NCBI GenBank assembly: GCA_965213645.1
Contig: CBDBZX010000010.1
Coordinates: 93,712 to 157,711, forward strand
Source: Trueperaceae bacterium
GTDB taxonomy: Bacteria > Deinococcota > Deinococci > Deinococcales > Trueperaceae
Direction of reading: 5' to 3'
DNA length: 64,000 bases
The notes under the pieces were generated by a model, which saw only the letters and a program-made list of their open reading frames with translations, ran no database searches and had not been told where the DNA came from. Below, one piece after another: positions 94 to 21,586 of this stretch. Both the position numbers and the translations under genes were made by a program. Position 1 is the first letter of the stretch, and each line of letters starts with the position of its first letter.

Positions 94-1833
94 GTGACGA
101 TTGGTGAAGCGCTGACACGGGGTAACGCTGGATTTTTGTCAATCACGCATGGAGTAGCACATTCAAGGGTTGAACGGGAGACCACGGTGAACACAACGGT
201 GAACACACGAGTACGGGTTAAAACAGCGCCAAATTTTAGAGGATGGGTGATCAGCACCTTCGCTGTTTGCCTCATCCTCGCCCTCAGCGCCTGCTCACAA
301 AATAGCGCACCTGAGCAAGCTGAGTTGGAAACGCAAGCCCCCAACCTCGTCACGAATTCAGGCTTTAGCGGTACGAGCGGGTGGTCATCCTATTTCAGCA
401 GCCCGATGACGGGCAGATTTTTGATCGAGAGCGGCGCAGGCAAGCTCAACATCCAGAACGCCGACGGCGCCGACTGGAAGGCGCAGCTCTACCAGAACGT
501 GAGCGTGCAGAGCGGCGCACGCTATTCGCTCACCTTTCAAGCGAAGGCGACGGGGGCGCGGCCCTTACGCGTCGCGCTGAGAAATTCAAGCTCGTACAGC
601 GACGTGTGGAGCAAGACGGTCAACCTCACCCCCTCGAACCAGACCTTCGGTCCTTTCACCTTTACGGCGGACGCTGCGAATAACCGCCAGCTCATCTTTT
701 ATGCGGGACAAAGCTCTAAAGATGTCTTTGTAGACAATGTGGTTCTCGAGGTGGCGAGTGGCGCAGCGCCGACACCGCCTAGCGGCGGCAAAACCTATCC
801 TTACGGCGGCAGCTTAGCCCCGAGCCAGTCCGAAGCCGACACCTTGATCCGCAATCTTTACGCCAAGTGGAAGCGCGAGCGCCTCGTCTACGCACCGAAC
901 AAGGGGCTTCAGCCGGGTGAAATCCTCTTGACTAGCAACACTCAGTTCAATAACGGCATGGTCTCTGAGGGCATCGGCTACGGGATGCTCTTGTCGGTTT
1001 ATAACAACGACAAGGCGACCTTCGACGGCATCTGGAAGTTCGGCAAGCGCAACCTCAACCAGTACGGCTTGTTGCCCTGGATATACAACAGCAACAGCCG
1101 CGTCGTCGACCCCAACAACGCTACTGACGGCGACCTAGACGCCGCTTTTGCGCTGATCGTCGCCAACCAAAAGGGTTGGGGGTATGCTCAGGACGCTCGC
1201 AACTTGGTCGATAATATCCTCGAGCACCTCGTGACCTCGGACAACGTCTTGGAGCGGGGCAGGGCCAATAATCCCAAAGACGTCATTAACACCTCTTACG
1301 TGTCGCCGGGCTACTTCAAGGTGTTTGCTGAATTCACGGGCAACAGGCGCTGGCTGGACGTGGCGAGCACGAACTACGCGATTCTCGAGCGGGGCTTAAA
1401 CAACTACACCCTCTTGCCGCATGACGTCAACACGCAGGGCAACGTAGTTGGCAACAACCAGAACTACGACTCCGACGCCGCCAGAGGACCGTGGCGTTTA
1501 GCGACCGACTACGTCTGGTACGGTGACAGCCGCGCCCAAACCCTGCTCAAGAAGTTCAACACCTTTTTCGAGAGTTCTAAAGCGGGGGGCTTGAGCAACC
1601 TGTGTGAAAGTTACGACCGCTTCGGCAATAAGGTCGGCTCTTGGTGTGGCTCCGACGCCGGTTGGATGATCCAAGGGGCCGCCTCCGCGCAGCTCGCCGA
1701 GAACGACAGCGCCGCCCGCCGCGAAGCCTGGAACGCGCTCTCGACGGCCTTCACCGGCAACTACTACTCGTTCGAGCTGACGCAGCTAGGCGTTTTGCTA
1801 ACCTCGGGGCGCTTCTACAACCCGTTGCAGTAG
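94..1833 (+). CDS. Secreted lipoprotein glycoside hydrolase: N-terminal CBM4/9-like carbohydrate-binding module plus GH8 catalytic domain
   Basis: 579-aa ORF. Lipobox LILALSAC. CBM4_9-like segment NLVTNSGFSGTSGWSSY...VDNVVLE. GH8-type motifs SEGIGYGML and ATDGDLDAAFALIVA. True start is probably the in-frame GTG at 187 or 199, just ahead of the signal peptide. Confidence 0.7.
   Translation: MTIGEALTRGNAGFLSITHGVAHSRVERETTVNTTVNTRVRVKTAPNFRGWVISTFAVCLILALSACSQNSAPEQAELETQAPNLVTNSGFSGTSGWSSYFSSPMTGRFLIESGAGKLNIQNADGADWKAQLYQNVSVQSGARYSLTFQAKATGARPLRVALRNSSSYSDVWSKTVNLTPSNQTFGPFTFTADAANNRQLIFYAGQSSKDVFVDNVVLEVASGAAPTPPSGGKTYPYGGSLAPSQSEADTLIRNLYAKWKRERLVYAPNKGLQPGEILLTSNTQFNNGMVSEGIGYGMLLSVYNNDKATFDGIWKFGKRNLNQYGLLPWIYNSNSRVVDPNNATDGDLDAAFALIVANQKGWGYAQDARNLVDNILEHLVTSDNVLERGRANNPKDVINTSYVSPGYFKVFAEFTGNRRWLDVASTNYAILERGLNNYTLLPHDVNTQGNVVGNNQNYDSDAARGPWRLATDYVWYGDSRAQTLLKKFNTFFESSKAGGLSNLCESYDRFGNKVGSWCGSDAGWMIQGAASAQLAENDSAARREAWNALSTAFTGNYYSFELTQLGVLLTSGRFYNPLQ
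184..207 (+). repeat. Perfect 12-nt x2 in-frame tandem duplication (acggtgaacaca; encodes TVNTTVNT) at or near the GH8 start region
   Basis: Read directly from the sequence. Confidence 0.9.
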
Positions 1834-1879
1834 TTAGGATAATGAGGGTTTGCTAGGCGGATGAGTCTTATAAACAGGC

Positions 1880-1921
1880 GCTGAGCTGTTGGTTTTGAGT
1901 TGCCAACAGCTCAGCCCTTTT
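1880..1921 (+). terminator. Rho-independent terminator after the GH8 gene
   Basis: 13-bp stem gctgagctgttgg / ccaacagctcagc (1880-1892 / 1903-1915) followed by ccttttc. Confidence 0.75.
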
Positions 1922-1983
1922 CGTGCGATATGCGGGACAAGCTCTATACTGATACTGCCCCGCTAAACCGGAGACCAAGTTTA

Positions 1984-2070
1984 TACGGATTCCGACTGAT
2001 TACTGCATAAACTCCGACACTGCGTGCTTCTACGGAGTTGTCGTTGATTCCGTAATCATCGGAATCCGTA
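1984..2070. repeat. Long imperfect inverted repeat forming an ~87-nt stem-loop, with an inner 7-bp stem (aactccg / cggagtt)
   Basis: tacggattccgactgattac (1984-2003) pairs with gtaatcatcggaatccgta (2052-2070): 19 bp with one bulged C. No ORF covers it. Confidence 0.7.
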
Positions 2071-2266
2071 GCTCTTTATTCTCGCAGAGGAGCCTTCAGC
2101 CGCTAGCGGGAGCGAACTAGCCCCAACGGGGCGGGCCCTGTTCCCGGAGGGAAACTTCGCAAGCCCTGCGAAGCGGGTATTGCCCGTTCTAGGGTCCACG
2201 CGACTGCGTATCATGCCGTTGTAACTTGCTCATATTGGCTATTCGTTGATGTTACCTAGGTTAGAG

Positions 2267-2310
2267 CACCGTTCGTTTACTTCGTAAAATTACATAACCA
2301 GCTTGACTGG
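2267..2310 (+). repeat. Variant copy of the dispersed caccgttcgtccagct(c/t)gactgg element, split by a 21-nt insertion
   Basis: caccgttcgt (2267-2276) + 21 nt + ccagcttgactgg (2298-2310). The same blocks are contiguous at 41845-41868, 53520-53543 and 53580-53603. Confidence 0.6.
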
Positions 2311-2376
2311 AAAGCTCAAAGGTCGCCGTAGGTCCCCGAAAGGGGGCTCTTAGCCTTCACCTGACCGGCTGATGAT

Positions 2377-2407
2377 TTGAGGATGGCACAAAGTGCCATC
2401 CTCAAAC
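2377..2407. other. Perfect 14-bp stem-loop (tttgaggatggcac aaa gtgccatcctcaaa). A second gtgccatcc copy followed by ctttttc lies at 2444-2459.
   Basis: Read directly. The left arm could pair alternatively with either downstream copy. Confidence 0.6.
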
Positions 2408-2500
2408 GCGCTAGGCGCGTAACTTCAAACGCTCTCACATTGTGCCATCCCTTTTTCAATCTGTAGTTGACCAGATACCTCCATCAATATAACGCATCGG

Positions 2501-2533
2501 GGTTAAACACGCGATAAAGTCGCGTGTTTAACC
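2501..2533 (-). terminator. Perfect 14-bp hairpin 11 nt downstream of the amidase-gene stop; possible terminator, but no clear U-tract
   Basis: ggttaaacacgcga / tcgcgtgtttaacc. Confidence 0.4.
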
Positions 2534-2543
2534 GGAAAAGGCA

Positions 2544-3938
2544 CTACCTGTCGCACTTCTTCGCCACCAGACCGTTCGAGCCCGTGTACACGAACGCATC
2601 GGTAATCCAAGCGCCGTTCGAGAGTTTGTCCCAAATGCGCGTCGTCCCGTAGGGTCCGGTGATCGCCTCGCCGTTCGGTTCTTGACAGATGATGGTCACG
2701 GGCGCGTTGCCGCCAAGCTGTCCGACTCTGCGGTAATTCGTACCAGGGCCACTCCGCAGATTGTAAATACCGTCCGCCAGCGTTCTCGCCTTCACCCCTG
2801 CACTGCTACCGTCACCGCACTTCGCTCTCGCCTTTCTGAGGTAGCGCCGCCAGGGCCAGTTCTCACCGGGGTCGGTACGGGTCTCGGGCTGCAACTGTCC
2901 GTGCCCGACGATGCGCACCCGGTTGAGCGGTACGCCGTTACGTTCACTAATCGCGCAGATGAGCTGCGCCGAGGTATCGATGAGCCCGGCTGAGAAGGTG
3001 CCCGAGGCGTACCCAGCGTGCTCGATGCCGATGGTGAACTCGTTCGTCCGGTCACCGTTGCGCCCGCAGAACTTGTCGCGGTTCAAGCTGCAGCGGTAAG
3101 GGGCGGCGATGTGCCAGGCGGTGTTGTCTTCGCTGACGAGCTGCGACACTTCGGAGCCGGATTCGTTGACGACGTAATGGGCGCTAGCGGGTACGTTCGG
3201 GTTAGTGAGGTGGCTGACGCAGCCTGCGTAGGAGCCCTCGCAGGTGTGAATGATGACCATGAGGGTTTTCGCGTCGCGGCTGTCGTAGTTGGATGAGGGG
3301 TTCCAGACAATGGGCGGGTAGAGGTTGCTCTGCTGCGGCTCGAGCTTCGGGGAGGGCGGCAAAACGAACTGGGGTTTGATATCGCGCTGGGGCTCCAAGG
3401 TCGCTACACGCTCGCCGTCTCTCTCGACGTCCGCCCCTTCTCGTAAAACGCGGTAGACCTCGTTGTGAACGTAGTAAGCTTGCCAGTCCTCATCCTCGAT
3501 ATCGCTATAGCGAGCCACAGCGCTCGCCCACGCCCCTACGTCGCTGCGGTTTATTGCCGCTTCGTCCGCGTAGGCGCTCAGCAGCGCCGCCGCCGCGCGG
3601 ATGTTCGCGTCGGGCTGAGCACGCGCCGCTGCCTCTGACACGTCCGCTAGGGCTGCGCCGCGTGCCAAGCGCTCGCCGCGCAGCGCCATGATGCCGAAGG
3701 CGGGCGCGGTTTCGTGTCTCGCCTCGCCGCGCACCATCTGCCAGCGCGTTTCGGCGTAGCCGATGGCTTTGAGCAACGCGGTCGGCACGCCGAACTCCGC
3801 GCCCGCCTCGGCGAAGAGGGTGTCGAGCTGGCTGGCTGGCGGCGGCGTTGTCTCGGACGGGACATCGGGGGAGGTTACGTCGGTGCTACACGCGGCTAAA
3901 AGGAGTAGGGAGCAAACAACTGCAATTCGTCGCAACAT
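2544..3938 (-). CDS. Lipoprotein peptidoglycan hydrolase: SLT-like lytic transglycosylase + N-acetylmuramoyl-L-alanine amidase (Amidase_2/PGRP type) + C-terminal SH3b-like module
   Basis: Signal peptide and lipobox MLRRIAVVCSLLLLAACS (start taken at this Met; the ORF extends to 3980). SLT-like LLKAIGYAETRW...FGIMAL. Amidase_2-like IIHTCEGS...SAHYVV...NTAWHIA...IGIEHAG...GHGQL...TDPGENWPW. Module IYNLRSGPGTNYRRVG...WDKL...KKC. Confidence 0.8.
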   Translation of the reverse strand: MLRRIAVVCSLLLLAACSTDVTSPDVPSETTPPPASQLDTLFAEAGAEFGVPTALLKAIGYAETRWQMVRGEARHETAPAFGIMALRGERLARGAALADVSEAAARAQPDANIRAAAALLSAYADEAAINRSDVGAWASAVARYSDIEDEDWQAYYVHNEVYRVLREGADVERDGERVATLEPQRDIKPQFVLPPSPKLEPQQSNLYPPIVWNPSSNYDSRDAKTLMVIIHTCEGSYAGCVSHLTNPNVPASAHYVVNESGSEVSQLVSEDNTAWHIAAPYRCSLNRDKFCGRNGDRTNEFTIGIEHAGYASGTFSAGLIDTSAQLICAISERNGVPLNRVRIVGHGQLQPETRTDPGENWPWRRYLRKARAKCGDGSSAGVKARTLADGIYNLRSGPGTNYRRVGQLGGNAPVTIICQEPNGEAITGPYGTTRIWDKLSNGAWITDAFVYTGSNGLVAKKCDR

Positions 3939-4006
3939 AATAAGGTTTCCTCTCGAGAGCAGACTTAGCGCCACACTCAAGCGTCCCTGAGTGTGGCGCG
4001 TATAGG

Positions 4007-4780
4007 CTAGAAACGGATGAAGGAGAGACCAGCAGCGGAGATGCGCCGCGTGCCGTAGGCGTACGGTTTCCAGTTGTACTCCTCGACGGTGATGTCTCCG
4101 TTACCGTGCACCTTCGCCACGTAAGCGACGTGCCCGTAACCCAGCGAGCCACGTTGATACGCCTCCCAGTGGGCGATGTCGCCGACTCTCGGCTTTCCGG
4201 CGACGCGCACCCCGGCGGCCCTCGCCGCGTCGTCCCAGTTGTTCGCGTTGCCCCAATGGACGCCCCGAAAGTAGTTGTGAAACTTGACGTTTTTGACTTT
4301 GCGGACGCGCCAGGTCGCGAACGAGACGCACTGACGGATGTAGAAGTTCCAGGGGTCGACGCCGCTCGTCGAGCCGTTTTTGTAGGGGTAGTTGTCGCCG
4401 ATGATGCGTCCTTGAGTTGGAGACGGCTTGTGACCTTTGCACCAAGGCGCGACACGGTTCATCGAGCCGGTGTAGACGTAAGCGTCGGAAATCCACTTGC
4501 CGCTTGCAAGCTTGTCCCAGAGTCTCGAGTAGCCCCACGGTCCCTTGTGCCGCGTGCCCCGCGCGTGGCAGACGATCTTGACCTCTTGACCGCCCGTCTT
4601 CTGCCCGACGACGCGGTAGTTGGTGCCAGGTCCGCTGCGGAGGTTGATGGTATGCCCTTTTGCCACGGTGCCGGTGGCGGCTTGTGCCTCTAGCTCGGCA
4701 GATTGTGCGGGGGCGTCAACGGTGCCGCAGGCGCTCAGAAAGAGGAGCGCGGCGAGGGCGAATAAACTCAGCTTGTTCAT
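4007..4780 (-). CDS. Lipoprotein with N-terminal SH3b-like module and C-terminal CHAP-domain peptidoglycan amidase/endopeptidase
   Basis: Lipobox LLFLSACG. Module TINLRSGPGTNYRVVGQKTGG...WDKLASGKWISDAYVYTG..RVAPWC. CHAP-like catalytic Cys context FYIRQCVSFATWRV and His context GDIAHWE...GHVAYV. Confidence 0.8.
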   Translation of the reverse strand: MNKLSLFALAALLFLSACGTVDAPAQSAELEAQAATGTVAKGHTINLRSGPGTNYRVVGQKTGGQEVKIVCHARGTRHKGPWGYSRLWDKLASGKWISDAYVYTGSMNRVAPWCKGHKPSPTQGRIIGDNYPYKNGSTSGVDPWNFYIRQCVSFATWRVRKVKNVKFHNYFRGVHWGNANNWDDAARAAGVRVAGKPRVGDIAHWEAYQRGSLGYGHVAYVAKVHGNGDITVEEYNWKPYAYGTRRISAAGLSFIRF

Positions 4781-4837
4781 GGTTGCTTCCTTTCGGAAAT
4801 GAGGTTCGGATGGCAGACGGTGTGGAGGGCTGGTCGC

Positions 4838-6376
4838 TCAGCTACACCCCTTCGCCAACCTGCCGTTGCTGCCCGAGTAGATTAGAGCGTCGCTAATCCA
4901 CTTGCCGTTCTTGAGCTTGTTCCAAAGGCGTGTGGTGCCGTAGGGTCCGGTGATGGCTTCGCCCCGTTCCTGACAGGTGATAACGACGGTGTAGCCGCCG
5001 CCGATGGTGCCCACCTTGCTGTAGTTCGTACCGGGGCCGCTCCGCAGGTTGTAGACGCTGCCGCTCAAAGTCTTAGCCCGCACGCGGTTGACAGTGGCGG
5101 GTCTGGTGTTGAGCTGGCCCAATTCGCGCTCGATACTACCTACCGTGCTGAACGTTCCGCCGCCCCAGAGGACGCCGTAGAGGGTTGCCGTTCCCGATTT
5201 GCCCCGCTTGAAAACGGGAGAGCCGCTGTCGCCTTTGCCGGACCTGATGTTGGACAGGACCTGGCACAGTTGGGTCAGTCCGGTGTCGCCGTTCACATTA
5301 AACTGGTTGACGTTGATGCACGTTCTTGTCACCTTGCCCGAGGTCCAACCCGTCGTCCTCCCCACCTTGTGGAGAATTTCGCCGACGATAGGCGCGTCGG
5401 CTTCGCCCGTGATTCTAAAGGAGCCGTTCACGCTCAGCGCGCCGCTGTTGAGGCTCGTCGTCTTAGCGATTTTGCCCAAAGCGAAGGCGGAACTTCCCGT
5501 ATACCGCGCGAACGAACTGTCGCTGTAGCGGCAGCGCCGTCCAGCGGGGCACTTGCCGCCGCGGAAATAACCGGGGTCTTTCGCCTCTACCCCGATGCGT
5601 CTACCGCCCGGCTGGCTATACACCGTACCTTCCGTACCGCCCTGCGTCTTCGTGCAGTGCGAATTGGTGATGAAACCCGGCGAACCTGCGCGCACAACGT
5701 GAAATCCCAACGTACAAGCGCCGTTGCCGAAGTTGATCTGAAAGCCCCCTCTCGTTGTATTAGGCGAACTTCGCAGCCCTAATAGAGGCATAATGGGTTC
5801 GGTTTCCTCAAAAAGCACTGCACCCTGGGGAACGCCCGCATTTTGCAAGGTGCGCTCTAAGAGGGCGCGGTTGGAAAAATCTTCAACGCCAACAACTAAG
5901 CGGTTCTGGGCTTCGTCGAGGTCGGTGAAGACGACGCCATCTACCCCTAATACCGAGTCAAGCTGCGCTTGCCAGGTGAGCAACTGTTTGACCTCATATT
6001 GACCCTCGAGGATGCGGATATCGGGCGCAGTGTTTTGCGTCTCTAAACCCTCACGCCCCTGCCCCAAGCGCTCCTCACCCAACACATCTTTGAGCGCCGC
6101 CAACGTGTCGCCCCGTTGCGCTTGGGCGTTTTGCGTTGTGATTCCAGCGGTGAGATAGACCGTTAGGACCCCTTCGTCGTCGAAGAAGAACCCGCCGAAG
6201 CCGGGTAGACGCTCCGCGATTTGAGCGAGTTGCTCGTCAGGATTGGCGTTCGCCGAGTACGAAGGTGCTTCGGCTTCACTCTCAGGTTGCGGCGCGGTGG
6301 CGCAACTTGCCAGTACGAGCGCCAAAAATGTCAAAACATTCAGGGTCAGCCACGGCTTAAGTAATCGTTGTCGCAT
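4838..6376 (-). CDS. Lipoprotein serine protease of the alpha-lytic/streptogrisin (S1E) type with pro-region and C-terminal SH3b-like module
   Basis: Lipobox LALVLASCA (start taken at MRQRLLKPW; the ORF extends to 6451). ACTLGFHV, ITNSHC, GDSGSPVF. Module VYNLRSGPGTNYSKVG...GEAITGPYGTTRLWNKL...KGC. Confidence 0.8.
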   Translation of the reverse strand: MRQRLLKPWLTLNVLTFLALVLASCATAPQPESEAEAPSYSANANPDEQLAQIAERLPGFGGFFFDDEGVLTVYLTAGITTQNAQAQRGDTLAALKDVLGEERLGQGREGLETQNTAPDIRILEGQYEVKQLLTWQAQLDSVLGVDGVVFTDLDEAQNRLVVGVEDFSNRALLERTLQNAGVPQGAVLFEETEPIMPLLGLRSSPNTTRGGFQINFGNGACTLGFHVVRAGSPGFITNSHCTKTQGGTEGTVYSQPGGRRIGVEAKDPGYFRGGKCPAGRRCRYSDSSFARYTGSSAFALGKIAKTTSLNSGALSVNGSFRITGEADAPIVGEILHKVGRTTGWTSGKVTRTCINVNQFNVNGDTGLTQLCQVLSNIRSGKGDSGSPVFKRGKSGTATLYGVLWGGGTFSTVGSIERELGQLNTRPATVNRVRAKTLSGSVYNLRSGPGTNYSKVGTIGGGYTVVITCQERGEAITGPYGTTRLWNKLKNGKWISDALIYSGSNGRLAKGCS

Positions 6377-6457
6377 AAGACCTCCCAAAAGGTTTGTTGC
6401 TGAAAGGAATTTAGAGCGGCGTGTGCGCTTGTCCTCTGGCGCACACGCCACGCTTGC

Positions 6458-7588
6458 TCAGCACCAGGGCGCGACGCGCCCCCACGTGCCTGTATTGACC
6501 CAGGCGTCTGAGACCCACTTGCCGCTGGCGAGCTTGTCCCACAAGTCCGAATATTGACCGCCGAGTTCAGGGGGACCTTTATGCCGTGTGCCCCGCTTGT
6601 GACAGACGATGGTGACCTTCTGTCCGCCCGTCTTCTGCCCGACCACCCGGTAGTTGCTGCCGGGACCGCTTCTCAAGTTCACCGTGTAATCCGCTGGGAT
6701 CGTGCCGGTGGCGCTGTCTGAAGAACCCGGATACAGCTTCCGCCACTGGGCGACGTCGCGCTTCGAAAGGTTGGTGCGCCCCCAGTAGCCGTTTACCTCT
6801 TGACCGTTTAGGCGTGTGAAATGAAGAGGTCCAAACTCGCGAGAGTTGTAGTGCATGATGGAGTTGTAGTCGTAGCGGCCCATCTGCACCAGGTTGCAGT
6901 TTCGGGTGAATTGGGCTGGCGCTGAGCTAGTATTGATCATACGGATGTAGCTGTTGCGGTCACAGCGCTTGATTTCATGCTGGAACCCTAGGGCGTGCCC
7001 CAACTCGTGCATGATGAGCGCTTTGCTCGCGCCCTTGCGACCGATGTAAATCCGGCAATTCCCGCCGGAACACCCGTCGTAATAGTTGCTGCCGTTGCCG
7101 TAGTAGATCGTCAGGTAGTGCGGCTGCCCGGTGTAGTTGACGAAGTTGACGCCAGGCACTTGCCGCTCGATCTGATTGAGCGCCGCTTGCAAATTGGTCG
7201 GCGCGTAGACCCTCCGCACCGGGATAACGCCACCCGTGTCGGACCAGAAGGACTTGCCGTTCCAGTGGAGGGCCTGCGGCGAGAGGTTGCGTTGAGACGC
7301 CTCTTCGGGCGTCTTGGCGACTTCGGACGGGTCACCGATGCCGATGTCGCCGTCGTAGATCGCGCGACCATTCACGACCTGGTACTGAATCTTAACGGGC
7401 GTTTCGCCGTCGTTGCCGAGGATGTAGCCTGTATACGCCGGACCTTTCTGCGGGTCTAGTATCCCTATTCCCGGCTGATCGTCCGAGCCTTCTGAGCCGG
7501 CGTCAATGTCTGTGAGTTGGCAGGCGGCGAGCGCTGTCAGAAGGGTCAGCGCGACCGCTAGGTGAACGTAACGTAGGGTATTCATCAC
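6458..7588 (-). CDS. Lipoprotein astacin-family (M12A) zinc metalloprotease with C-terminal SH3b-like module
   Basis: Lipobox LTALAACQ. Full astacin signature HELGHALGFQHEIKRCDRNSY and Met-turn SIMHY. Module TVNLRSGPGSNYRVVGQKTGG...RVAPWC. Confidence 0.85.
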   Translation of the reverse strand: MMNTLRYVHLAVALTLLTALAACQLTDIDAGSEGSDDQPGIGILDPQKGPAYTGYILGNDGETPVKIQYQVVNGRAIYDGDIGIGDPSEVAKTPEEASQRNLSPQALHWNGKSFWSDTGGVIPVRRVYAPTNLQAALNQIERQVPGVNFVNYTGQPHYLTIYYGNGSNYYDGCSGGNCRIYIGRKGASKALIMHELGHALGFQHEIKRCDRNSYIRMINTSSAPAQFTRNCNLVQMGRYDYNSIMHYNSREFGPLHFTRLNGQEVNGYWGRTNLSKRDVAQWRKLYPGSSDSATGTIPADYTVNLRSGPGSNYRVVGQKTGGQKVTIVCHKRGTRHKGPPELGGQYSDLWDKLASGKWVSDAWVNTGTWGRVAPWC

Positions 7589-7643
7589 TTGCTCCTTGTC
7601 ATGAGAAGGTGTCCCGTTTTGCGTGTACGTGAAAACTGATATA

Positions 7644-7694
7644 CGTCTCTCACGGCTATTGCGCTACCGCATACATAAAACGTGGTACACCGCC
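7644..7694 (+). repeat. 51-nt conserved intergenic element, copy A (second copy at 28732-28782)
   Basis: Shares cgtctctc, cgctac and a perfect 17-nt block aaacgtggtacaccgcc with copy B. Confidence 0.7.
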
Positions 7695-7753
7695 TGTCGT
7701 AGGAAAACGCTCGAGAGGTCAGTACGCCCCTTGAAGCTGCTCACTTGCATCCT

Positions 7754-8524
7754 TCAACCGCACCAGGGCGCGACGCGCCCCCACGTGCCCGTGTTGACCC
7801 AAGCGTCCGAAATCCACTTGCCACTCTCGAGCTTATCCCAGAGCCTCGAGTACTGCCCGCCGAGTTCAGCGGGTCCTTTGACCCGTGTGCCCCGTTTATG
7901 GCAAACGATCTTGACCTTCTGGCCGCCTGTCTTCTGCCCGACGACGCGGTAATTCGTGCCGGGGCCGCTCCGCAGGTTCACCGTGTAACCCGCCGGAATC
8001 GTGCCCGTGGCGTACTGCTTGCCGCCCGACACCTTGCTGACGGCGCGTCTGGCTTGTCCTAGGTACTGCTTATACGCGCCGCTGTTATAGGCGACCCAAG
8101 CTGTCCAGTTGCCCCGCTGCCGGTAGATGTTGACCGCCGCTTTCGTGTTGCAGGAGGCGTTGTAGAGGCAGTTCGCCGAGTAGCCGTGAATGCTGTTGAT
8201 CTGATAGAGACCTCGGTCTACCGAGCCGTTGGTATTGCTGTTATAGGCGTCTTGGCACAAGCTTGACTCGGCTTTGGCAATCGCGCCCGCTGTGGCCCAT
8301 TGACTTTTAGGCAAGCGCCCGTCGCGTTTAAGTAGCTTGATCGTCCTCGTCATCGAGATACGTTTACACGCCGCCAGATTCTCGATGTCGGGTTGGGGCG
8401 TCGGCGGGGCGGATTGCTGGCTACAACCCGCGACGAGTGCGAGGAGCAGTGCGGCGATGAGTAAACCTGCTCTGCGTCTGAAAAGCTCTTGCGACGCCGC
8501 TCTATAGATGCTTATACGTCTCAT
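7754..8524 (-). CDS. Lipoprotein lysozyme-like/SLT-type glycosidase with C-terminal SH3b-like module
   Basis: Lipobox LLALVAGCS. AIAKAESSLC...VDRGLYQINS...TAWVAY (Glu-Ser / GLYQIN transglycosylase-like motifs). Module TVNLRSGPGTNYRVVGQKTGG...RVAPWCG. Confidence 0.75.
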   Translation of the reverse strand: MRRISIYRAASQELFRRRAGLLIAALLLALVAGCSQQSAPPTPQPDIENLAACKRISMTRTIKLLKRDGRLPKSQWATAGAIAKAESSLCQDAYNSNTNGSVDRGLYQINSIHGYSANCLYNASCNTKAAVNIYRQRGNWTAWVAYNSGAYKQYLGQARRAVSKVSGGKQYATGTIPAGYTVNLRSGPGTNYRVVGQKTGGQKVKIVCHKRGTRVKGPAELGGQYSRLWDKLESGKWISDAWVNTGTWGRVAPWCG

Positions 8525-8777
8525 GAGAAATGGATGGGTAAGCGCAAGATGTTAAATTTTACACATTGACAGCTCGAGTCTCGCCTGCCTTGCGGATAAA
8601 TTTGCCACTCATGATGAGTCAGCCGTTCCATAAGTATGTCCTCTCCCAAAGGTCACTTCAGACGGCGTATAGAGATAGCGAAAGCATAAAGCTAACCGTC
8701 CTACACACGGATTCTTAAACCTCGTCCCCTTTCTGAGATGCGCATCTCGAACGCTCATCAGCTTGTCATAGGGGGGT

Positions 8778-8848
8778 TGAGAAGCGCCTGAGAAGAGCTG
8801 ATAAACCCCTGAGTTTGGGCCCCTACACGCTCATCGTCCTCTGATAAA
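8778..8848 (+). promoter_or_regulatory. Phased heptad direct repeats (TGAGAAG, TGAGAAG, TGATAAA, TGAGTTT, TGATAAA): candidate SARP box upstream of the regulator gene
   Basis: Heptads start at 8778, 8789, 8799, 8810 and 8842 (spacings 11, 10, 11, 32 nt), i.e. on one helical face. They lie 30-100 nt upstream of the GTG start at 8879. Confidence 0.4.
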
Positions 8849-8878
8849 AGACTCACCTTCCGTTGCTAATCTGACTTC

Positions 8879-11143
8879 GTGCAACTGAAAACTTTCGGGG
8901 GGCTGAGCTTAGAGGGTGCGAACTTTCAGCGGGAAACGCCGCTCATGGTGCTCGTCTACCTCTCGCTCGAGGGGGAGAAACCGCGTAGGCACGTCGCTGA
9001 CCTCTTCTGGCCCGACAAAACAAATAAGACACAGCGCCTCAACAATCTCTCGCGGGTGCTCTCCGACCTACGTAAATACGCGCCCGGCACGTTCGGGGCG
9101 AGCCGTACCCACGTTCGCTCGGCGGTGAACTGCGACGTGCTCGAGTTCCGCCGCGCCCTGCTCGGGAGCGACCACCGAAGGGCCGAAAACCTCTACCGAG
9201 GCCCCTTTTTAGAAGGCCACCTATCTGGCTGGGGCGTCGAACTCGAGGAGTGGATAGACGAGCAGCGTCGCCTCGCTGCCCAGCAGATGCAAGAGGCGTG
9301 TCTCGCGCTCGCTGAGCATGAGGCGGCGAAGCGGCAGTTCGTGCGTGCGGCGTCCTGGGCACAGCAGGCCCACGAACGAAGCGACACGCTCGAGCCTGAC
9401 CTCTCAGAGCGCTTCTACACCCTGCTCGCTGCCGCTGATCACCCACTTGCGGGCGCGGTGCAGCGCGACATGAAAGACTACGACATAGGGCTGTCCCTCT
9501 CCAAAGAGGAGGCGCGGCTCCAACTCAGCCCGACCTTTATTGGGCGAGAACGCGAGCGGGCGCGTCTGCAGGGGCTCGAGGACAGTAGTTGGCTCTGGCT
9601 CAGAGGGGCACAGGGCATGGGCAAAACGAGCCTCCTCAAGCGCCTGCCCGGTACCTTTTTGCCTGCTCGCTCAGGGACGCCGTTAGCGACCCTGGAACCC
9701 CTTTTAGGTGCAGACGTCCACTTGACGGCCAACAGGGGACGGGCCTGGATTCTGCAGAGCCTCCGGGCGCGTGAGGGAACCTGGCTGTTCGACGACTGGG
9801 AAGAGATGGACGCTGAGAGCCGCGAGCTTCTGATATGCCTTCGCAAGTTGAAGCCCCAGCTCCGGGTCGTTATCACTGGGGAAGTGCCGCCGCCTTTCCC
9901 GGTGGATACAGTTTTGGAATTAGGACCTCTTCCCGCCGAAGCACTCGAGGCTTATCCCGGCGCTTGGGAGAAGACGGGTGGGCTGCCCGGCCTCGTCCAC
10001 GCCTACCTGCAAAGGGCGTCTTTAGAGCGCGTGCTAGAGACGCGACTCGCGACCTTCTCCGAGGAGGTGCGCGATGTCTTTTTCGGGCTCACGTTGCTCG
10101 AAGTACCCTGTGTCGCCTTAGTCCGCCGCGCTCTGGGCCTGGACGCTGAAGCGATGACGGGTGCGCTAGACGCCTTGCTGGGAGCCGCCCTCATCACCTC
10201 GTCGGGACGGGTCAGGGCGCACGTGACCGCGTCGGCGCTCCTAGCTTCGCACCCATCGCAGCTCGGTCCCTTGGCCCTCAAACTCGCCCGCTGCTCGGAG
10301 CCTAAGGAGGCGTTTACACTCTATCAACGGGTTCGCGCTTTCTGGACGCAAGCAGATAAACCCGCTATCCGACGCGCCTACGCAGCTTATGCACAGCACC
10401 TCCGGCAGCAAGGGCATTCGGAACAAGCCGACGCCGTCCTACGTGAAGCGTCGCCTGATGAGGAAGTTTCGCTCCTCGGTACTTCGCCCGTAAAAAACGA
10501 GACTTCGCCCGTAAAGAACGAGCAAAGCGACCCAGGCGTATCCGTAGAGGCTGCACCTACCGAAGCCGAGCATTCTCACGTCATCGAAAGGCGCTTTCCG
10601 AGATGGTGGGCGGCAACGCATGTCGTAGGTTTTTTGCTCATCGCACTATTTAGTTCACGCGGCGCTGCCGACGCGGTGACGACGGGCGGTATCATTCTCT
10701 CCACCCTGCTCGTATTAGCCGTGCTGCTCTGTCTGGGGTGGCGACTGGTGCGCCTCAAAACGTCGTCGGTTTGCTGGTCGGGGGTCGGGGTCGCTGTTGC
10801 TGCTGGCGGGGCTTTGGCGCTCGCCACGCTGAGCCATTTGGGTCAGCTCGAGAGCCTCATGTGTTTAGGAAGTGTCGCGACGGTTGTGGGAACCGGAGCG
10901 ACGATAGGTGCGGCCAGAGGCTCTAAAGCCGGGCTCTGCGGCTCGGCCTTCGCCGCCCTCGGTGCACTTTTTGCAGCCGTGCAGCTCTCCTGGGGGACGG
11001 ATGTCGGTCTGCTGAGCGAACTCAATATGTCGCTGCTGACCATGCAACTCGTGCTCAGTGTCGGGGCTGCGTTCTGGGGTTATCTCCTTGCGCTTATCAT
11101 CTTGTCGTCACTCGGGTCCAGAGGATTATTTGTAAAGGGGTAG
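8879..11143 (+). CDS. SARP/AfsR-like regulator: winged-helix + BTAD domain, P-loop NTPase domain, C-terminal multi-pass membrane domain
   Basis: 754-aa ORF. N-terminus MQLKTFGGLSLEG...ADLFWPD...LSDLRKY, then the BTAD-like stretch FRRALLG...LYRGPFLEG...WIDEQRRL. Walker A LRGAQGMGKTSLLKRL. The last ~190 aa are hydrophobic helices. Confidence 0.65.
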   Translation: MQLKTFGGLSLEGANFQRETPLMVLVYLSLEGEKPRRHVADLFWPDKTNKTQRLNNLSRVLSDLRKYAPGTFGASRTHVRSAVNCDVLEFRRALLGSDHRRAENLYRGPFLEGHLSGWGVELEEWIDEQRRLAAQQMQEACLALAEHEAAKRQFVRAASWAQQAHERSDTLEPDLSERFYTLLAAADHPLAGAVQRDMKDYDIGLSLSKEEARLQLSPTFIGRERERARLQGLEDSSWLWLRGAQGMGKTSLLKRLPGTFLPARSGTPLATLEPLLGADVHLTANRGRAWILQSLRAREGTWLFDDWEEMDAESRELLICLRKLKPQLRVVITGEVPPPFPVDTVLELGPLPAEALEAYPGAWEKTGGLPGLVHAYLQRASLERVLETRLATFSEEVRDVFFGLTLLEVPCVALVRRALGLDAEAMTGALDALLGAALITSSGRVRAHVTASALLASHPSQLGPLALKLARCSEPKEAFTLYQRVRAFWTQADKPAIRRAYAAYAQHLRQQGHSEQADAVLREASPDEEVSLLGTSPVKNETSPVKNEQSDPGVSVEAAPTEAEHSHVIERRFPRWWAATHVVGFLLIALFSSRGAADAVTTGGIILSTLLVLAVLLCLGWRLVRLKTSSVCWSGVGVAVAAGGALALATLSHLGQLESLMCLGSVATVVGTGATIGAARGSKAGLCGSAFAALGALFAAVQLSWGTDVGLLSELNMSLLTMQLVLSVGAAFWGYLLALIILSSLGSRGLFVKG
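10481..10522 (+). repeat. 21-nt x2 in-frame tandem duplication (TSPVKNE TSPVKNE) in the linker before the membrane domain
   Basis: acttcgcccgtaaaaaacgag / acttcgcccgtaaagaacgag, one mismatch. Confidence 0.9.
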
Positions 11144-11707: not shown

Positions 11708-13885
11708 CTAAGGCGCTAAACGCTTCTCTTGCAACCTGAGAACCACTTCGGTCTCCGGCGCTGCGGCGTCTCGAGCGAGGCGGACCCGGTAGTCGCCCTT
11801 GGCTACGGTCCAACCAGGGGTATCCGGGTCGTAGGACGCCATCACGCGCAGCTCGTCGCAGATGATGCGGACTGTCGCCGACTGACCTGGCTCGAGCGCA
11901 ACACGCGCCCAACCCGCGAGACGGAAGGTCGGCTCGCTCGCCCCGGCTGGCTCTACGGGCGGCGCGACGTAAACTTGCGGCGTGTCGGTTCCGGTGCGCT
12001 CGCCCACGTTGCTCACCGTCAGCGATACCTCGATTATCCCATCGCCGTTTACCGTAATCTCGACGTTGCTGTAGTCGAAGTGCGTATAAGACAACCCGAA
12101 CCCGAACGGGAACAGGGGCGGTCGCCCCTCGCGAGCGTGCCAGCGGTAGCCGATATCGGCCCCCTCGATGTCGTAGTTGACGCCGACATAGTCGCCCCGG
12201 CGCGGTTGCCCCGGGAAGGATGTCGTATCCTCAGGTGAGCGCACCTCCGGGCGCGGCAGGTCCGCTTCTTCGACCGGAAAACTGACCGGTAGCCTGCCCG
12301 AAGGCGTCACCTCACCTGTCAGTACCGCCGCGATCGCCTGTGCCCCCGCGCTGCCGCCGTACCACGCAGCCAGCACCGCTGACACGTCGTCCAGCCAAGG
12401 CATCAACACCGCCCCCGGCGTTTCCAGAATCACCACCGTCTGAGTCGCCCGTGCCGCTGCCAGCGCAATTAAATCATCTTGAGTGCCACCCAAAGAGAGG
12501 TCGGTGGCGTCCCAGCCTTCAGTAGCCCATTTCTCAGCGAAGATGATGGCGATGTCGTCATCGCGCAGTTCCGACAGATCGTCGCCCAGGAACACGACTT
12601 CGCTTTCACCGAAGCGTTCTTTTATCGTATTGAGCGGCGAAGGACCGTGATAAATACGCGGGAACTCCATCTGCGGAACGCGCGCCCCCTCTCTTTTGGC
12701 GTGTTCTGGTGGCGTCACCGCCGAGCTGCCACCGCCCGAGAGTACCCCGAGGTCGGCGTTCTCGCCGAGCACGGCGATACGTCCTTGCGGCGGGTTTAGC
12801 GGCAAAACATCGTCATTTTTCAGTAGCACAAGGGACTGTTCAGCGACCTGACGCGCGACCTCCAGGTGGCGTGGCAGCGGGGCGAGGTCGGGCAACCGAC
12901 GCTCCTCTAGCGCGCCGACGGAGTGCAGCGCGGCGAGGATGCGGGTCACCATGTCGTCCAGCCGCGCCTCGCTGACCCTACCCTCGGTTACCGCGACTTT
13001 AAGCGGCTCGCCAAAAAAATGTGCCGTGTCCAGGTCCCAGCCCGACTGCCGGTCTAACCCGGCCCACGCCGCATGCTCAGTTGAATGGGTCGCGCCCCAG
13101 TCCGACATGACGAAGCCCTTGAACTGCCAGTCGCCCTTGAGAACCGCAGTGAGCAGGAAATGACTTTCCGACGCATAAATCTTGTTGACCATGTTGTAGC
13201 CGGGCATGATCGAGCGCGGCTGACCGTGTTCAGTAGCAAGCTGGAACGAGAGCAGGTCGGACTCACGCAGCGCCTTTTCGCTAATGTCCGAGCTGACCAT
13301 CACCCGCCCGGTCTCCTCGGGATTGACGGCATAGTGCTTCAGCGTCGAGACGACACCCTGCGACTGGATGCCTGCGACGGACGCCCCTGTGAGCAGACCG
13401 GTATGCAGCGCATCCTCACCTATATATTCGAAGATGCGACCGCCGCGCGGCTCGCGTATCAGGTTCATGCCGCCAGCGAGCTGGACGGAGAAGCCCAGGT
13501 GCCGCGCCTGAGCACCAACAGCCTCGCCCACCGCGTGCGCTGCGTCACGGCAGAAGGTCGCGCCCAAGGCAATGAGCGCGGGAAAGGCGGTGACATCCTC
13601 TTGACTACGAACGTCGTTGGGGTTGGTGACGCCCATGCTAGCGTCGCTCTCGTCCCACATAGGGATGCCCAGGCGAGGCACGCCGGACGTCGCCGCGGCC
13701 GAGCCGTGCGCGCCCTCCAGCGCTCCATCCGCCGCCATTGGAGCCGACACGAGTGAGACCTTTTCGTCCAAGGTCATCTGGGCGACCAGCGCTTCGGCTG
13801 CCGCCCAGTCGTCTTGCCAGCCGGTCCACGGTCCGGGTTCGGCGCGGAAATGACAGATTATCTCTGTAGTCATTATCTTCCCCAT
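11708..13885 (-). CDS. Glycoside hydrolase family 3 beta-glucosidase (BglX-like)
   Basis: 725-aa ORF. GH3 nucleophile motif KGFVMSDWGATHS. Typical GH3 N- and C-terminal domain layout plus a fibronectin-like tail. Confidence 0.85.
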   Translation of the reverse strand: MGKIMTTEIICHFRAEPGPWTGWQDDWAAAEALVAQMTLDEKVSLVSAPMAADGALEGAHGSAAATSGVPRLGIPMWDESDASMGVTNPNDVRSQEDVTAFPALIALGATFCRDAAHAVGEAVGAQARHLGFSVQLAGGMNLIREPRGGRIFEYIGEDALHTGLLTGASVAGIQSQGVVSTLKHYAVNPEETGRVMVSSDISEKALRESDLLSFQLATEHGQPRSIMPGYNMVNKIYASESHFLLTAVLKGDWQFKGFVMSDWGATHSTEHAAWAGLDRQSGWDLDTAHFFGEPLKVAVTEGRVSEARLDDMVTRILAALHSVGALEERRLPDLAPLPRHLEVARQVAEQSLVLLKNDDVLPLNPPQGRIAVLGENADLGVLSGGGSSAVTPPEHAKREGARVPQMEFPRIYHGPSPLNTIKERFGESEVVFLGDDLSELRDDDIAIIFAEKWATEGWDATDLSLGGTQDDLIALAAARATQTVVILETPGAVLMPWLDDVSAVLAAWYGGSAGAQAIAAVLTGEVTPSGRLPVSFPVEEADLPRPEVRSPEDTTSFPGQPRRGDYVGVNYDIEGADIGYRWHAREGRPPLFPFGFGLSYTHFDYSNVEITVNGDGIIEVSLTVSNVGERTGTDTPQVYVAPPVEPAGASEPTFRLAGWARVALEPGQSATVRIICDELRVMASYDPDTPGWTVAKGDYRVRLARDAAAPETEVVLRLQEKRLAP

Positions 13886-14173
13886 TCCTCGATCTGTTTC
13901 AGCCTAATTCTAAAGACAACATAGGCGCTGTCTCCGAGCCCACGTTCTACAATCACCTTCGCGTATGTCTGGCGCACAGCGCCGCAAGACAGCCTAGCCC
14001 TTGCAGGGCACCAAGTTAGCTGGTGCAGTATTAGTTAGAGACTACCTCTCCTGGGTACAGGCTCGGTGCATCAGAAAGAAACCTGCAACTGTGAAGATAA
14101 CCCTTGAAACTCCACATGAATAGTTTTTGTAGGAGCGGTAGCACATAGGATAAAAGATGGTGTAACGTCAGCC

Positions 14174-15022
14174 ATGCCTCTCGTCTATCTCTTAGCGCTC
14201 CTCGTGCTCCTCGCCGCCTTGATAGGGCAGCGTCGCCCTTCTACGGACCTCGCGGGAAGAGGTGAGCGCGACTGGCAGCCCGACCTCGCGAGACAAGCCT
14301 ATGGAACCTTGGGGGGTGACACCTTGACACTCCACAACGTTCGCAACAGCCGCTATCCTGACTCCGGTGGGTCCGTTGATGTGGTGTGGGAAACGCGCCG
14401 CTACGACCTCAGTAAGGTGACACGCCTCTGGTTCCTCATCGCCTCCTTCAGCCGCTTCGAGGCCGTCGCCCACACCTTTTTGAGCTTTGAATTTGAAGAT
14501 GGTCAGTTCTTAGCGGTGTCGGCGGAGGCTCGAGTTGAGCAGGACAAGGAATATAACCTCGTGGAGGGCGTGCTCCGACACTTTGAGCTGAGCTACGTGT
14601 TCGGCGACGAGCGCGACCTCGTGTTGCGCCGCACCTTATATCAAGACACCGAAGTGTACCTCTATCCGCTGATCACGCCGTCCCGTGAGGTTCGCAGCTT
14701 GCTCGTGCGCATGGTTGAAACGGCGAACGAGCTGCGCGAACACGCCCGCTTCTACAACAGCGTCACGGAAAACTGTACGAGCGTCCTGCGCGAACACGCC
14801 AACGAGGTGCGCCCCGGCTCCTTCCGCTCGTTTGCACTCGCTCAGGTGATGCCCGGTATCTCAGACCGGGTGCTCTACCATAGAGGCTGGATCGACACCA
14901 ACTTGCCCTTTGAAGAGATACGCGAGCACTTCGCTATTCAGGAGAAGACGCGACATTGCGAGGTGAATGAGGGGTTCTCGAGCTGCATCCGGAAGGGGCT
15001 GCAAGAAGGCGTAAAGAGGTGA
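14174..15022 (+). CDS. DUF4105 (Lnb N-terminal-domain-like) membrane-anchored protein
   Basis: N-terminal TM helix. AHTFLSFEFEDGQFLAVSAEAR...YNLVEG...ELSYVFGDERDLVLRRT...FYNSVTENCTS matches my recollection of DUF4105. Confidence 0.55.
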   Translation: MPLVYLLALLVLLAALIGQRRPSTDLAGRGERDWQPDLARQAYGTLGGDTLTLHNVRNSRYPDSGGSVDVVWETRRYDLSKVTRLWFLIASFSRFEAVAHTFLSFEFEDGQFLAVSAEARVEQDKEYNLVEGVLRHFELSYVFGDERDLVLRRTLYQDTEVYLYPLITPSREVRSLLVRMVETANELREHARFYNSVTENCTSVLREHANEVRPGSFRSFALAQVMPGISDRVLYHRGWIDTNLPFEEIREHFAIQEKTRHCEVNEGFSSCIRKGLQEGVKR

Positions 15023-15702
15023 GCGCCGTGGCGGAACTGTGGCGTATCATCTGGAGCAGCCTCACGCTAGACTGGGACTTATGGCGCGACCTCGTCGCCA
15101 ATCCTGATGCAGTGCGCTTCCAGTTCGCGGTTCTCATCGTCGTTTTGGCAGGACTCTCTGAAGCCGCCGCGCAAAGCGTGATCTTGTTTCTCAATCAGGT
15201 CAGGCCGCACCGCTTCATCGCCAGCCTGGTTATCAACGCCTTTCTGTTCACCTTCGGCTACGTCTTCTACGTGCTGAGCATCAACCTGGTCGCCCGCGTT
15301 CTGTACGGCGCACCCCGCCCTAATGAACTCATCTTCGACAGCATTGCCCTGACCTACGCGCCCCTTATCTTGAGCTTTTTAAGCCTCATCCCCTACTTCG
15401 GGCGGGGCATCAGGATCGTTCTGTCGGTCTATCACGCGCTGGCGCTGCTCATCGCGGTGCGCGTCACGTTCGCCCTGGAGCCGCCCCAACCCGTCGTCTG
15501 CGTCGCGGTGGGCTGGGTGCTCCTCACCCTCCTGAGCGGGACGATAGGTCGCCCCATCACCGTCTTTGCGCGTTTCTTGCGCAACCGCTTCGCGGGCAAG
15601 CAGCTTCTGAACTTAGAAGAGGTGCGTCAGCGCTACCGCGAGCGGCTCACTCAGGGTGACGCACAGATGCGTAATCAAGCTGAAAGTCAGGGCGAAGCGT
15701 GA
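15019..15702 (+). CDS. Integral membrane protein (about 5 TM helices, Yip1-like topology)
   Basis: GTGA start/stop overlap with the upstream gene. Hydrophobic helices throughout. Confidence 0.5.
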   Translation: MSAVAELWRIIWSSLTLDWDLWRDLVANPDAVRFQFAVLIVVLAGLSEAAAQSVILFLNQVRPHRFIASLVINAFLFTFGYVFYVLSINLVARVLYGAPRPNELIFDSIALTYAPLILSFLSLIPYFGRGIRIVLSVYHALALLIAVRVTFALEPPQPVVCVAVGWVLLTLLSGTIGRPITVFARFLRNRFAGKQLLNLEEVRQRYRERLTQGDAQMRNQAESQGEA

Positions 15703-16739: not shown

Positions 16740-17155
16740 AGAGCCTCAACATGATCTGGGGCAACGTCTACTTGCGGGCGTTCTTGCTTGCCACCGCCGC
16801 CGTGCTGCTCGTGTACCTCTTGAACGTCACCCGGCTCGCTTGGCGCAGCTTCCTCATCGCCCAGGGGTATAACCTCTCTACCGAGACGCAATCTACGAAA
16901 CAGCTCGAGTCGTCCTTAGCAGCAGGCATCACCCATATCCGCAGCCACGTTGACATCGAGATGCTTTTAGACCTCGCTACGTATGGAGGTGCTAAGGTCA
17001 TGAAAGATGGGCAGTACGGTTTAGAGGTTGGCAAAAGGGCGGACCTCGTGGTCTTGCCTGGTAACACACCTGCTCAAGCCGTCATCGAACAGCCACCGCG
17101 CACTTTCGTCATCAAAGATGGACAGCTTGTTGCGAAGGGCGGAAAGCTCACATAA
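16736..17155 (+). pseudogene. Amidohydrolase (cytosine-deaminase-like) remnant fused to an N-terminal TM segment
   Basis: 139 aa. GITHIRSHVDI runs directly into a C-terminal amidohydrolase tail ATYGGAKVM...GLEVGKRADLVVLPG...VIKDGQLV. The several-hundred-aa metal-binding barrel expected between them is absent. Confidence 0.5.
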
Positions 17156-17169
17156 ACCAGGGAGGATTT

Positions 17170-19473: not shown

Positions 19474-19623
19474 GCAGAACGCTGTAGGGATAGCGATGAT
19501 GACAACTGCCTTACCGACCTCTTTCGGTGAAATACTGTGAACGATCTCAACCTCACACTTTTTGCCGTCGGCCTCCTGACACTTGGACGCCGGGTCGAGT
19601 TACGTATAAGTTCCGTGCTGAGT

Positions 19624-19699: not shown

Positions 19700-19795
19700 C
19701 GAGCGGATGCGAGAAGAAATAGACACAGTCAGTTGGTGCAGCGAAGCGTGGAAGTGCTAATAGTCGTACTGCTCGAGGAGTGTAGCGCACTCCGG

Positions 19796-21571: not shown

Positions 21572-21586
21572 TTGTCAAATTCGGAG

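Follow-up and report, generated by a model that had tools for sequence, protein, structure and literature searches.

A candidate bacteriolytic island in a Trueperaceae bacterium: five predicted lipoprotein hydrolases with one shared SH3b-like module and a divergent SARP-like regulator

The 64,000-nt stretch analysed here (positions 93,712 to 157,711 of contig CBDBZX010000010.1 from a Trueperaceae bacterium, phylum Deinococcota; hereafter the window) carries an island of 8.6 kb (2544-11143), in which an array of five minus-strand genes, P1 to P5, stands next to a single divergent regulator gene. All five products are predicted lipoproteins, and each joins hydrolytic domains to one copy of the same SH3b-like module. 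With modest confidence, the island is read as an accessory, regulator-controlled bacteriolytic cocktail of a Deinococcota bacterium, likely aimed at the walls of other bacteria. The array had been picked out in a preliminary description made from the sequence, and its five consecutive open reading frames are indeed present, at 2544-3980, 4007-4780, 4838-6451, 6458-7588, and 7754-8524.

Gene starts were refined (right-hand coordinates of P1 to P5 in Table 1) according to the N-termini of orthologues and Shine-Dalgarno-like (SD-like) motifs. The latter (GAGAGGAAA, GAAAGGAAG, GGGAGG, and AAGGAG) lie 6-10 nt ahead of the ATG upstream of P1 to P4, and the intergenic gaps with the refined starts are 68, 57, 81, and 168 nt. 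Since the gaps are short, SD-like motifs precede P1 to P4, and no convincing terminators were found within the array, the genes fit a single operon. A sigma-70 and terminator scan gave nothing that exceeded shuffle expectation. GC content and GC content at third codon positions (GC3) of the array equal those of the rest of the window. As for export, translations were read by eye for the pattern [LVI][ASTVI][GAS]C preceded by a hydrophobic signal. By this criterion P1 to P5 are predicted bacterial lipoproteins, whose lipoboxes (Table 1) end the signal peptides as previously described and are kept in orthologues. A protein identical to P2 exists in a public protein collection.

The module shared by the five proteins is ~79 aa long, with 28 invariant positions among 79 aligned columns, both Cys included. 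When its hidden Markov model (HMM) is run on the six-frame translation of the window, exactly five copies are reported, one in each of P1 to P5, so the common two-Cys module of the preliminary description is recovered in full. The copies are 50-83% identical in DNA, which suggests old paralogous fusions rather than recent duplicates. They form two classes, A (on P2, P4, and P5) and B (on P1 and P3), with ~55% DNA identity between them, and the two classes may recognise different ligands. Clustering across related loci groups the modules by gene and not by locus, which argues that each tag co-evolved with its enzyme; the same clustering gives no support to module-driven recombination or concerted evolution. 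Class A is marked by HxRGTRxKGP, with a 4-residue PELG/AELG-type insertion in 2 of the class-A modules, and class B by QE(P)xGEAITGPYGTT.

Regarding the fold, the module scores 20.9-25.4 bits against Pfam SH3_3 (E 1.6e-5 to 4e-4), just short of the 27 bits required for gathering, and the alignment is usually limited to the first half of that model. A further match is to the N-terminal SH3 of the NCBIfam model GsmA (E 1e-9 to 3e-15), and the module profile matches the solved fungal SH3-like domains 8B2G, 8B2H, and 8B2F (E 3.6e-16, 1.1e-14, and 3.7e-10, respectively) over residues 5-74 of 74. The fungal domains have disulfides Cys9-Cys53 and Cys33-Cys72, conserved in all fungal examples; the T. 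saccata homologue, the only one for which wall binding is shown, binds Micrococcus lysodeikticus cells, with a triglycine ligand contacted by Arg10; and "module walking" has placed the same domain on amidases, C40, M23, GH24, GH73, and new GH184 muramidases (PMC10394673). HMMER alignments put the two Cys of the module on Cys33 and Cys72, and the invariant Arg of NLRSGPG on Arg10. The fungal two-disulfide pattern is not reproduced: only the Cys33 and Cys72 positions hold Cys, with Leu at the Cys9 position and Lys/Ala at the Cys53 position. By sequence, the module is thus predicted to be a bacterial sister, with one disulfide, of a domain already known to bind walls, and stands outside the 4-Cys fungal group. 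Homology to 8B2G, with the Cys pair aligned to the solved Cys33-Cys72 disulfide, agrees with the earlier SH3b-like assignment and points to an SH3 fold braced by a Cys-Cys bond. By analogy with the solved fungal homologues, the module would bind peptidoglycan. The sole predicted model that spans a module (P3 residues 453-537) has a predicted local distance difference test (pLDDT) value of ~30 there, from an alignment without module-bearing homologues.

The module family is large, with 3704 matching clusters among 1.84 billion representatives, 779 of them at E<1e-10. Fusions often carry two or three copies. In a sample of 46, CHAP (11/46) and M23 (6/46) were counted, and further partners are Amidase_6, cutinase, Amidase_2, NlpC/P60, CAP, and S8, among others; stand-alone Streptomyces proteins of ~100-125 aa also belong to the family.

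The catalytic partners proposed earlier hold for Amidase_2, CHAP, S1, astacin, and SLT_3, whereas the SLT domain proposed for P1 is only a weak, sub-threshold match. Scores above the Pfam gathering score are obtained for P1 Amidase_2 (73.4 vs 26 bits), P2 CHAP (65.3 vs 26), and P5 SLT_3 (45.6 vs 27), and P4 Astacin exceeds its Pfam cut-off (74.8 vs 22.5). The P1 amidase also matches AmpDh2/AmpD structures (E ~1e-9 in the PDB sequence search). The P4 translation carries the zinc motif HELGHALGFQHE (HExxHxxGFxHE type) and a SIMHY Met-turn (SxMHY type). The N-domain of P1 stays below the Pfam SLT gathering score (15.5 vs 21.3 bits, E 0.013) and has no match in the PDB sequence search; its AET...GIMAL motif, which recalls ES...GLMQ, is kept in orthologues.

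P3 has no Pfam S1/Trypsin match, the Pfam results being limited to weak Nal1_C (E 1e-3) and Rv1815-type (E 0.013) matches. Its catalytic triad, H265 (TNSHC), D311 (YSDSS), and S409 (GDSGS), is invariant across 38 homologues. In the AlphaFold (AF2) model, pLDDT is ~90 over the pro-domain (residues ~70-216) and the catalytic domain, and the best Foldseek matches are alpha-lytic protease (3URE, 2ALP) and the Lysobacter proteases L1 (5MRR) and L5 (5MRT), with E ~3e-13 to 1e-12 and template modelling (TM) scores of 0.78-0.82 relative to the target. The predicted structure thus supports P3 as an alpha-lytic-type S1 protease (subfamily MEROPS S1E). Residues ~70-216 form a confidently modelled alpha/beta domain that is conserved in the family and is a candidate pro-region. 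The family numbers >2000 proteins of ~410 aa, mostly unannotated or "hypothetical", and its named members come largely from metagenome-assembled genomes of Gemmatimonadota/Longimicrobia. Most members do not have the shared module, which suggests that the module-bearing fusion is particular to the present clade. Despite the alpha-lytic-protease-like fold, the family (including homologues P0361-P0477) is covered by no Pfam model except the weak Nal1_C.

As for the regulator, neither the protein nor 20 of its relatives match Pfam BTAD or Trans_reg_C at E<0.01, and its N-terminal profile has no PDB sequence match. PDB sequence searches were dominated by TPR matches, and the fold search alone resolved the N-terminus. 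The AlphaFold (AF2) model of residues 1-215 (pLDDT 92.9) has AfsR (8HVR, 8K60) and EmbR (2FF4) as its top four Foldseek matches (prob 1.0, TMq 0.56-0.67); for AfsR 8HVR, E is 8.8e-6 and TM 0.61. These matches support a SARP fold, i.e., a predicted OmpR-type winged helix plus a bacterial transcriptional activation domain, in keeping with the SARP-type neighbour of the preliminary description. In the Walker A motif G246, G248, and K249 are invariant, and AAA_16 is matched weakly (E 0.038 in the regulator, 1.5e-4 in relatives). About 200 homologues of ~800 aa cover just the first 71% of the regulator and end in TPR arrays; where named, they belong to Trueperaceae, Meiothermus, Thermaceae, and Deinococcus, and point to a Deinococcota host. 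Where these relatives have TPR, the regulator has ~5-6 hydrophobic transmembrane-like segments (residues ~575-754), so the NOD plus C-terminal TPR layout of large SARPs is not found. The hydrophobic C-terminus is common only to the regulator, its six close relatives, and one further protein at 39% identity. From these segments, the regulator is probably membrane-anchored. The public gene call of the regulator, P0239 (732 aa), begins 22 codons past the GTG at 8879. This call is probably too short, since relatives conserve the N-terminus that it omits (8879-8944; MQLKTFGGLSLEG...), and the model builds the first strands of the SARP fold from it.

The control region between the regulator and P5 is about as conserved as the flanking genes, or more so; the regulator proteins of the five loci compared are 68-85% identical to that of the window. 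It contains four conserved heptamer direct repeats (Table 1), starting at 8778, 8789, 8799, and 8810, with a spacing of 11, 10, and 11 nt; nowhere else in the window is the exact double heptamer present. SARP targets are direct repeats with 11-bp periodicity (PMC10936776), the periodicity criterion for such promoters being 11 or 22 bp, and according to their spacing the heptamers are a candidate SARP binding site. Other conserved elements include palindromes ACTCATGATGAGT at ~8608-8620 and GAGATGCGCATCTC at ~8735-8748, and an invariant GTGTAAAAT.TAACATCT block ~25-45 nt upstream of the P5 ATG. An RNA leader was considered for the intergenic region and rejected (RNAalifold covariation term -0.28, few compensatory pairs), and an Rfam search of 1800-9200 gave no match at E<=1.

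Related loci were obtained by exact-protein look-ups and from metagenome contigs. The six-gene block of the window, with five modules and the same gene order, recurs in locus L064, and the five genes of the array in L066, while further loci hold shorter variants with M23 (Table 1). Numbers of lytic genes among the loci are 5, 5, 3, 3, and at least 3. The divergent regulator/SLT_3 pair is found in five loci (the window, L064, L065, L068, and L069), and the SLT_3 gene, P5 in the window, adjoins the regulator in every locus that holds a regulator and a lytic gene. BLASTN homology to the window extends from the P1 stop (2544) to the end of the regulator (~11130), where it ceases. Each locus has flanks of its own, and those of L064, L065, and L066 include transposase genes directly beside the island. 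The preliminary description had asked whether gene order and regulator are conserved in relatives, and these results support a conserved accessory block rather than scattered housekeeping autolysins.

The island clade is rare. A search of 5.8 billion proteins gave only 6 close relatives of the regulator, a GTDB genome scan with P4 yielded no array with the module and just relatives at 25-43% identity, and a JGI metagenome scan with the SLT_3-plus-module alignment returned nothing close. In the distant locus L077 (65% GC), positions 2735-6326 encode a P1-like lipoprotein with SLT-like and Amidase_2 domains in which Golvesin_C replaces the SH3b module, then an astacin that bears two copies of the module and, besides it, another astacin-like lipoprotein. 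This arrangement suggests that the amidase-astacin linkage reaches beyond the clade with the tag swapped.

Table 1. Features of the island and composition of related loci; coordinates refer to the window unless a locus is named
Feature	Coordinates	Strand	Description
P1	2544..3938	-	LAAC lipoprotein (predicted); weak SLT-like N-domain, Amidase_2 (~2862-3263), C-terminal class-B module (2550-2789)
P2	4007..4780	-	LSAC lipoprotein (predicted); N-terminal class-A module (4436-4672), CHAP (~4073-4354)
P3	4838..6376	-	LASC lipoprotein (predicted); candidate pro-domain (~5804-6244), predicted alpha-lytic-type S1 (~5102-5764), C-terminal class-B module (4841-5077)
P4	6458..7585	-	LAAC lipoprotein (predicted); astacin M12A (~6731-7198), C-terminal class-A module (6461-6706)
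P5	7754..8524	-	VAGC lipoprotein (predicted); SLT_3 lysozyme-like domain (~8096-8302), C-terminal class-A module (7757-8005)
Divergent control region	8525..8878	.	354 nt; mean column identity 79% over five loci
Four heptamer direct repeats	8778..8816	+	TGAGAAG / TGAGAAG / TGATAAA / TGAGTTT; candidate SARP binding site
Regulator	8879..11143	+	Predicted SARP domain (residues 1-215, 8879-9523), P-loop/NOD (Walker A ~9605-9628), helical middle, hydrophobic C-terminal region (~10601-11140)
L064			regulator / SLT_3, astacin, S1, CHAP, Amidase_2; five modules; six-gene block, same order as window
L066			same five genes as window; 96% identical to window
L065			regulator / SLT_3, M23, Amidase_2
L068			4.39-Mb contig; regulator / SLT_3, S1, M23
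L071			(contig edge) S1, M23, Amidase_2
L069			regulator / SLT_3 (contig edge)
M23 lipoproteins of variant islands	L065:8555-9886, L068:5839-7173, L071:1727-3061

The M23 enzyme of the variant islands is a ~444-aa lipoprotein (LSAC) without the module, and no Pfam family matches the ~290 aa at its N-terminus. After the array, L071 carries genes for MarR, FtsX/MacB-type permeases, a LolA-like protein (PF17131), and an ABC ATPase (5733-10505), and L068 carries FtsX and ABC ATPase genes (3356-5464). These transporter genes may represent a link to lipoprotein or enzyme export; none of the kind adjoins the island of the window. On the other side of the array, positions 94-2543 of the window hold the gene of a GH8 plus CBM_4_9 lipoprotein (LSAC), convergent to it, and after that gene a strong 14-bp-stem hairpin (1880-1915) and a 710-nt stretch without a convincing ORF. 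The equivalent gap in L066 holds a transposase fragment (DUF4096). Beyond the regulator, positions 11708-23919 include a GH3 beta-glucosidase-type enzyme, an Lnb_N-domain protein, and an NgcE-like sugar ABC transporter (GlcNAc/chitobiose type), a carbohydrate-scavenging context that is not conserved beside the island in other loci.

According to the mechanism proposed here, the SARP-type activator, probably membrane-anchored, would bind the heptamer repeats and switch on the five-gene operon. To judge from their lipoboxes, P1 to P5 would be exported as lipid-anchored lipoproteins; P3, and perhaps the astacin P4, would be made as zymogens, with pro-domain removal also freeing them from the anchor. 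The disulfide-braced SH3b-like domain, homologous to the fungal domains that bind walls, would hold each enzyme on peptidoglycan. There SLT_3 is predicted to cleave glycan strands, Amidase_2 the MurNAc-L-Ala amide, and CHAP and alpha-lytic-type S1 (with M23 in variant islands) cross-bridges or stem peptides. The likely target is the wall of other bacteria, whether live competitors or dead cells that serve as food, much as with the Lysobacter lytic secretome. A more specific version is entertained tentatively and considered rather unlikely: an inducible bacteriolysis weapon, in which a membrane SARP-NOD protein senses a competitor, prey, or envelope cue, and lipid-tethered hydrolases or zymogens, freed by pro-domain cleavage or in vesicles, home to foreign walls via the two tag subtypes.

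An antagonistic or scavenging role is favoured over that of core morphogenetic autolysins because the island is accessory, mobile-looking, and variable in content, and the bacteriolytic reading is supported by the closest structures of P3, which are bacteriolytic proteases. Several points weigh against it. The functional interpretation draws solely on genes, sequence comparison, and predicted structures; the related loci are, with one exception, from the same ENA metagenome sample and represent related populations, not independent lineages; and P5 has no SD-like motif. A lipid anchor combined with a wall tag would suit enzymes of the producer's own wall equally. Genes for secretion systems, vesicle biogenesis, or immunity show no consistent linkage with the island, and the "complete envelope-degrading kit" with surface or vesicle delivery put forward earlier goes further than the evidence on secretion, immunity, and vesicles at the island. 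Moreover, the peptidoglycan of Deinococcus and Thermus has Orn-Gly-Gly bridges, and given the triglycine bound by the fungal homologue, self or kin walls could be the ligand of the module.

This possible ligand also favours the main rival, self-directed wall remodelling or autolysis, in which the lipoproteins stay on the producer's membrane and bind its own peptidoglycan for daughter-cell separation, a developmental transition, biofilm release of extracellular DNA, or programmed lysis, with a regulator that senses the state of the envelope. The lipoboxes on all five proteins suit it, the apparent membrane segments of the regulator could monitor the envelope, no immunity gene would be needed, and the module matches the SH3 of GsmA, a family named for a sporangiospore-maturation wall hydrolase, i.e., a self-directed developmental enzyme. 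However, content and location vary among close relatives and transposases adjoin the island, which is unusual for core morphogenetic hydrolases; the island is missing from most available Deinococcota data; and degradation outside the cell is the typical task of astacins and of alpha-lytic-type proteases with pro-domains. This rival is considered rather unlikely, although serious. A phage-derived lysis cassette, or anti-phage abortive infection in which a STAND-like sensor triggers suicidal lysis, is very improbable. Amidase_2 with SH3 is endolysin-like, with weak, domain-level PHROG endolysin matches, and the NOD/P-loop of the regulator is of the STAND-sensor kind, but the island and its flanks have no phage structural, holin, or integrase genes, no PADLOC model matched, an IMG/VR scan gave just weak, partial matches to the module, GC and GC3 equal those of the host, and lipoprotein export is at odds with holin-dependent endolysins. 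Equally remote, and disfavoured, is a neighbourhood due to chance, in which independent housekeeping hydrolases happen to have one domain in common and the regulator beside them is unrelated. Wall hydrolases carry SH3b-type domains very frequently, as the size of the module family shows, but the five copies present in the 64 kb all lie in adjacent genes, the block order is kept in L064 and the array in L066, and the regulator/SLT_3 pair persists in five loci together with its conserved control region.

Concerning novelty, literature searches found no lytic-enzyme cluster described for Deinococcota, nor any account of a cluster of such composition. The earlier claim of an undescribed composition thus stands for the cluster, but not for its parts, as the module family, its lytic fusions, and a Lysobacter-type cocktail are already published. 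Each component family is known, and so are cocktails of lytic enzymes and the use of a wall-binding domain as a portable tag. What is new is the compact operon in which three to five lipoprotein hydrolases share a tag, the fusion of this tag to astacin, an alpha-lytic-type protease, and SLT_3, and the linked, apparently SARP-fold regulator of a Deinococcota lineage, with hydrophobic membrane-like segments in place of a sensor domain.

If the island is a switchable lytic cocktail, it offers a co-evolved set of at least five wall-targeted enzymes, SH3b-tagged astacin and alpha-lytic-type protease fusions among them, in which enzybiotics could be sought. It would also provide a SARP-family activator from outside the actinomycetes that is tractable and has a membrane domain instead of a TPR sensor, and would hint at members of Deinococcota that attack other bacteria or feed on them. 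If the inducible weapon were real, it would speak for a Deinococcota lineage that lives by bacteriolysis, possibly as a predator, and its regulator would be, to our knowledge, the first of the SARP type to have lytic enzymes, and not secondary metabolism, as its dedicated regulon. The island also shows that "module walking" with this wall-binding domain can take place inside one locus. The practical value is moderate, all parts being from known families and the function read from sequence and models.

Among known systems, GsmA (NF038016, sporangiospore maturation cell wall hydrolase) shares with the module its N-terminal SH3. The match, however, is limited to model positions ~1-96 of 316 and reaches 38-56 bits vs a cut-off of 240, and the catalytic parts are unrelated. 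The regulator resembles AfsR (the large SARP of Streptomyces, with SARP, NOD, and TPR) and EmbR of Mycobacterium in its N-terminal fold, with the P-loop NOD next to it; the adjacent control region holds candidate direct repeats of 11-bp period. In contrast to AfsR and EmbR, it belongs to Deinococcota and not to an actinomycete, has no Pfam BTAD/Trans_reg_C match, and carries hydrophobic segments instead of TPR; its presumed regulon consists of hydrolases, not of an antibiotic biosynthetic cluster.

The bacteriolytic secretome of Lysobacter (XL1/enzymogenes) includes alpha-lytic proteases L1/L5, beta-lytic protease Blp, amidase Ami, and a muramidase (PMC12250508, PMC8415630, PMC12219114, PMC13300490). 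L1 and L5 cut peptidoglycan bridges, and L5 is carried in outer-membrane vesicles (PMC12250508, PMC8415630). The present islands have, judging from their genes alone, a similar set: an alpha-lytic-type protease, M23 (in variant islands), an amidase, and a glycan-cutting enzyme. Blp of Lysobacter is likewise an M23 enzyme. As for gene arrangement, alpA and alpB of Lysobacter are adjacent and the other lytic genes lie elsewhere, so that, as far as we know, they do not form one operon. We also know of no description of the Lysobacter enzymes as lipoproteins with a common SH3b tag, or of a dedicated SARP regulator for them.

The closest counterparts of the module are the fungal SH3-like cell-wall-binding domains described in 2023 (PMC10394673). 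Homology covers the whole ~73-aa domain, the xRSGPG, WDK, and DxY/F motifs are conserved along with the Cys33-Cys72 pair, and in both cases the domain is a portable tag on many wall hydrolases. In comparison with the fungal domains, the module lacks the first disulfide and has a longer distal insertion (GPYG or GPPELGG). Its partners astacin, alpha-lytic-type S1, and SLT_3 are not among the fusions reported for the fungal family (PMC10394673), and here five fusions stand side by side, next to one regulator.

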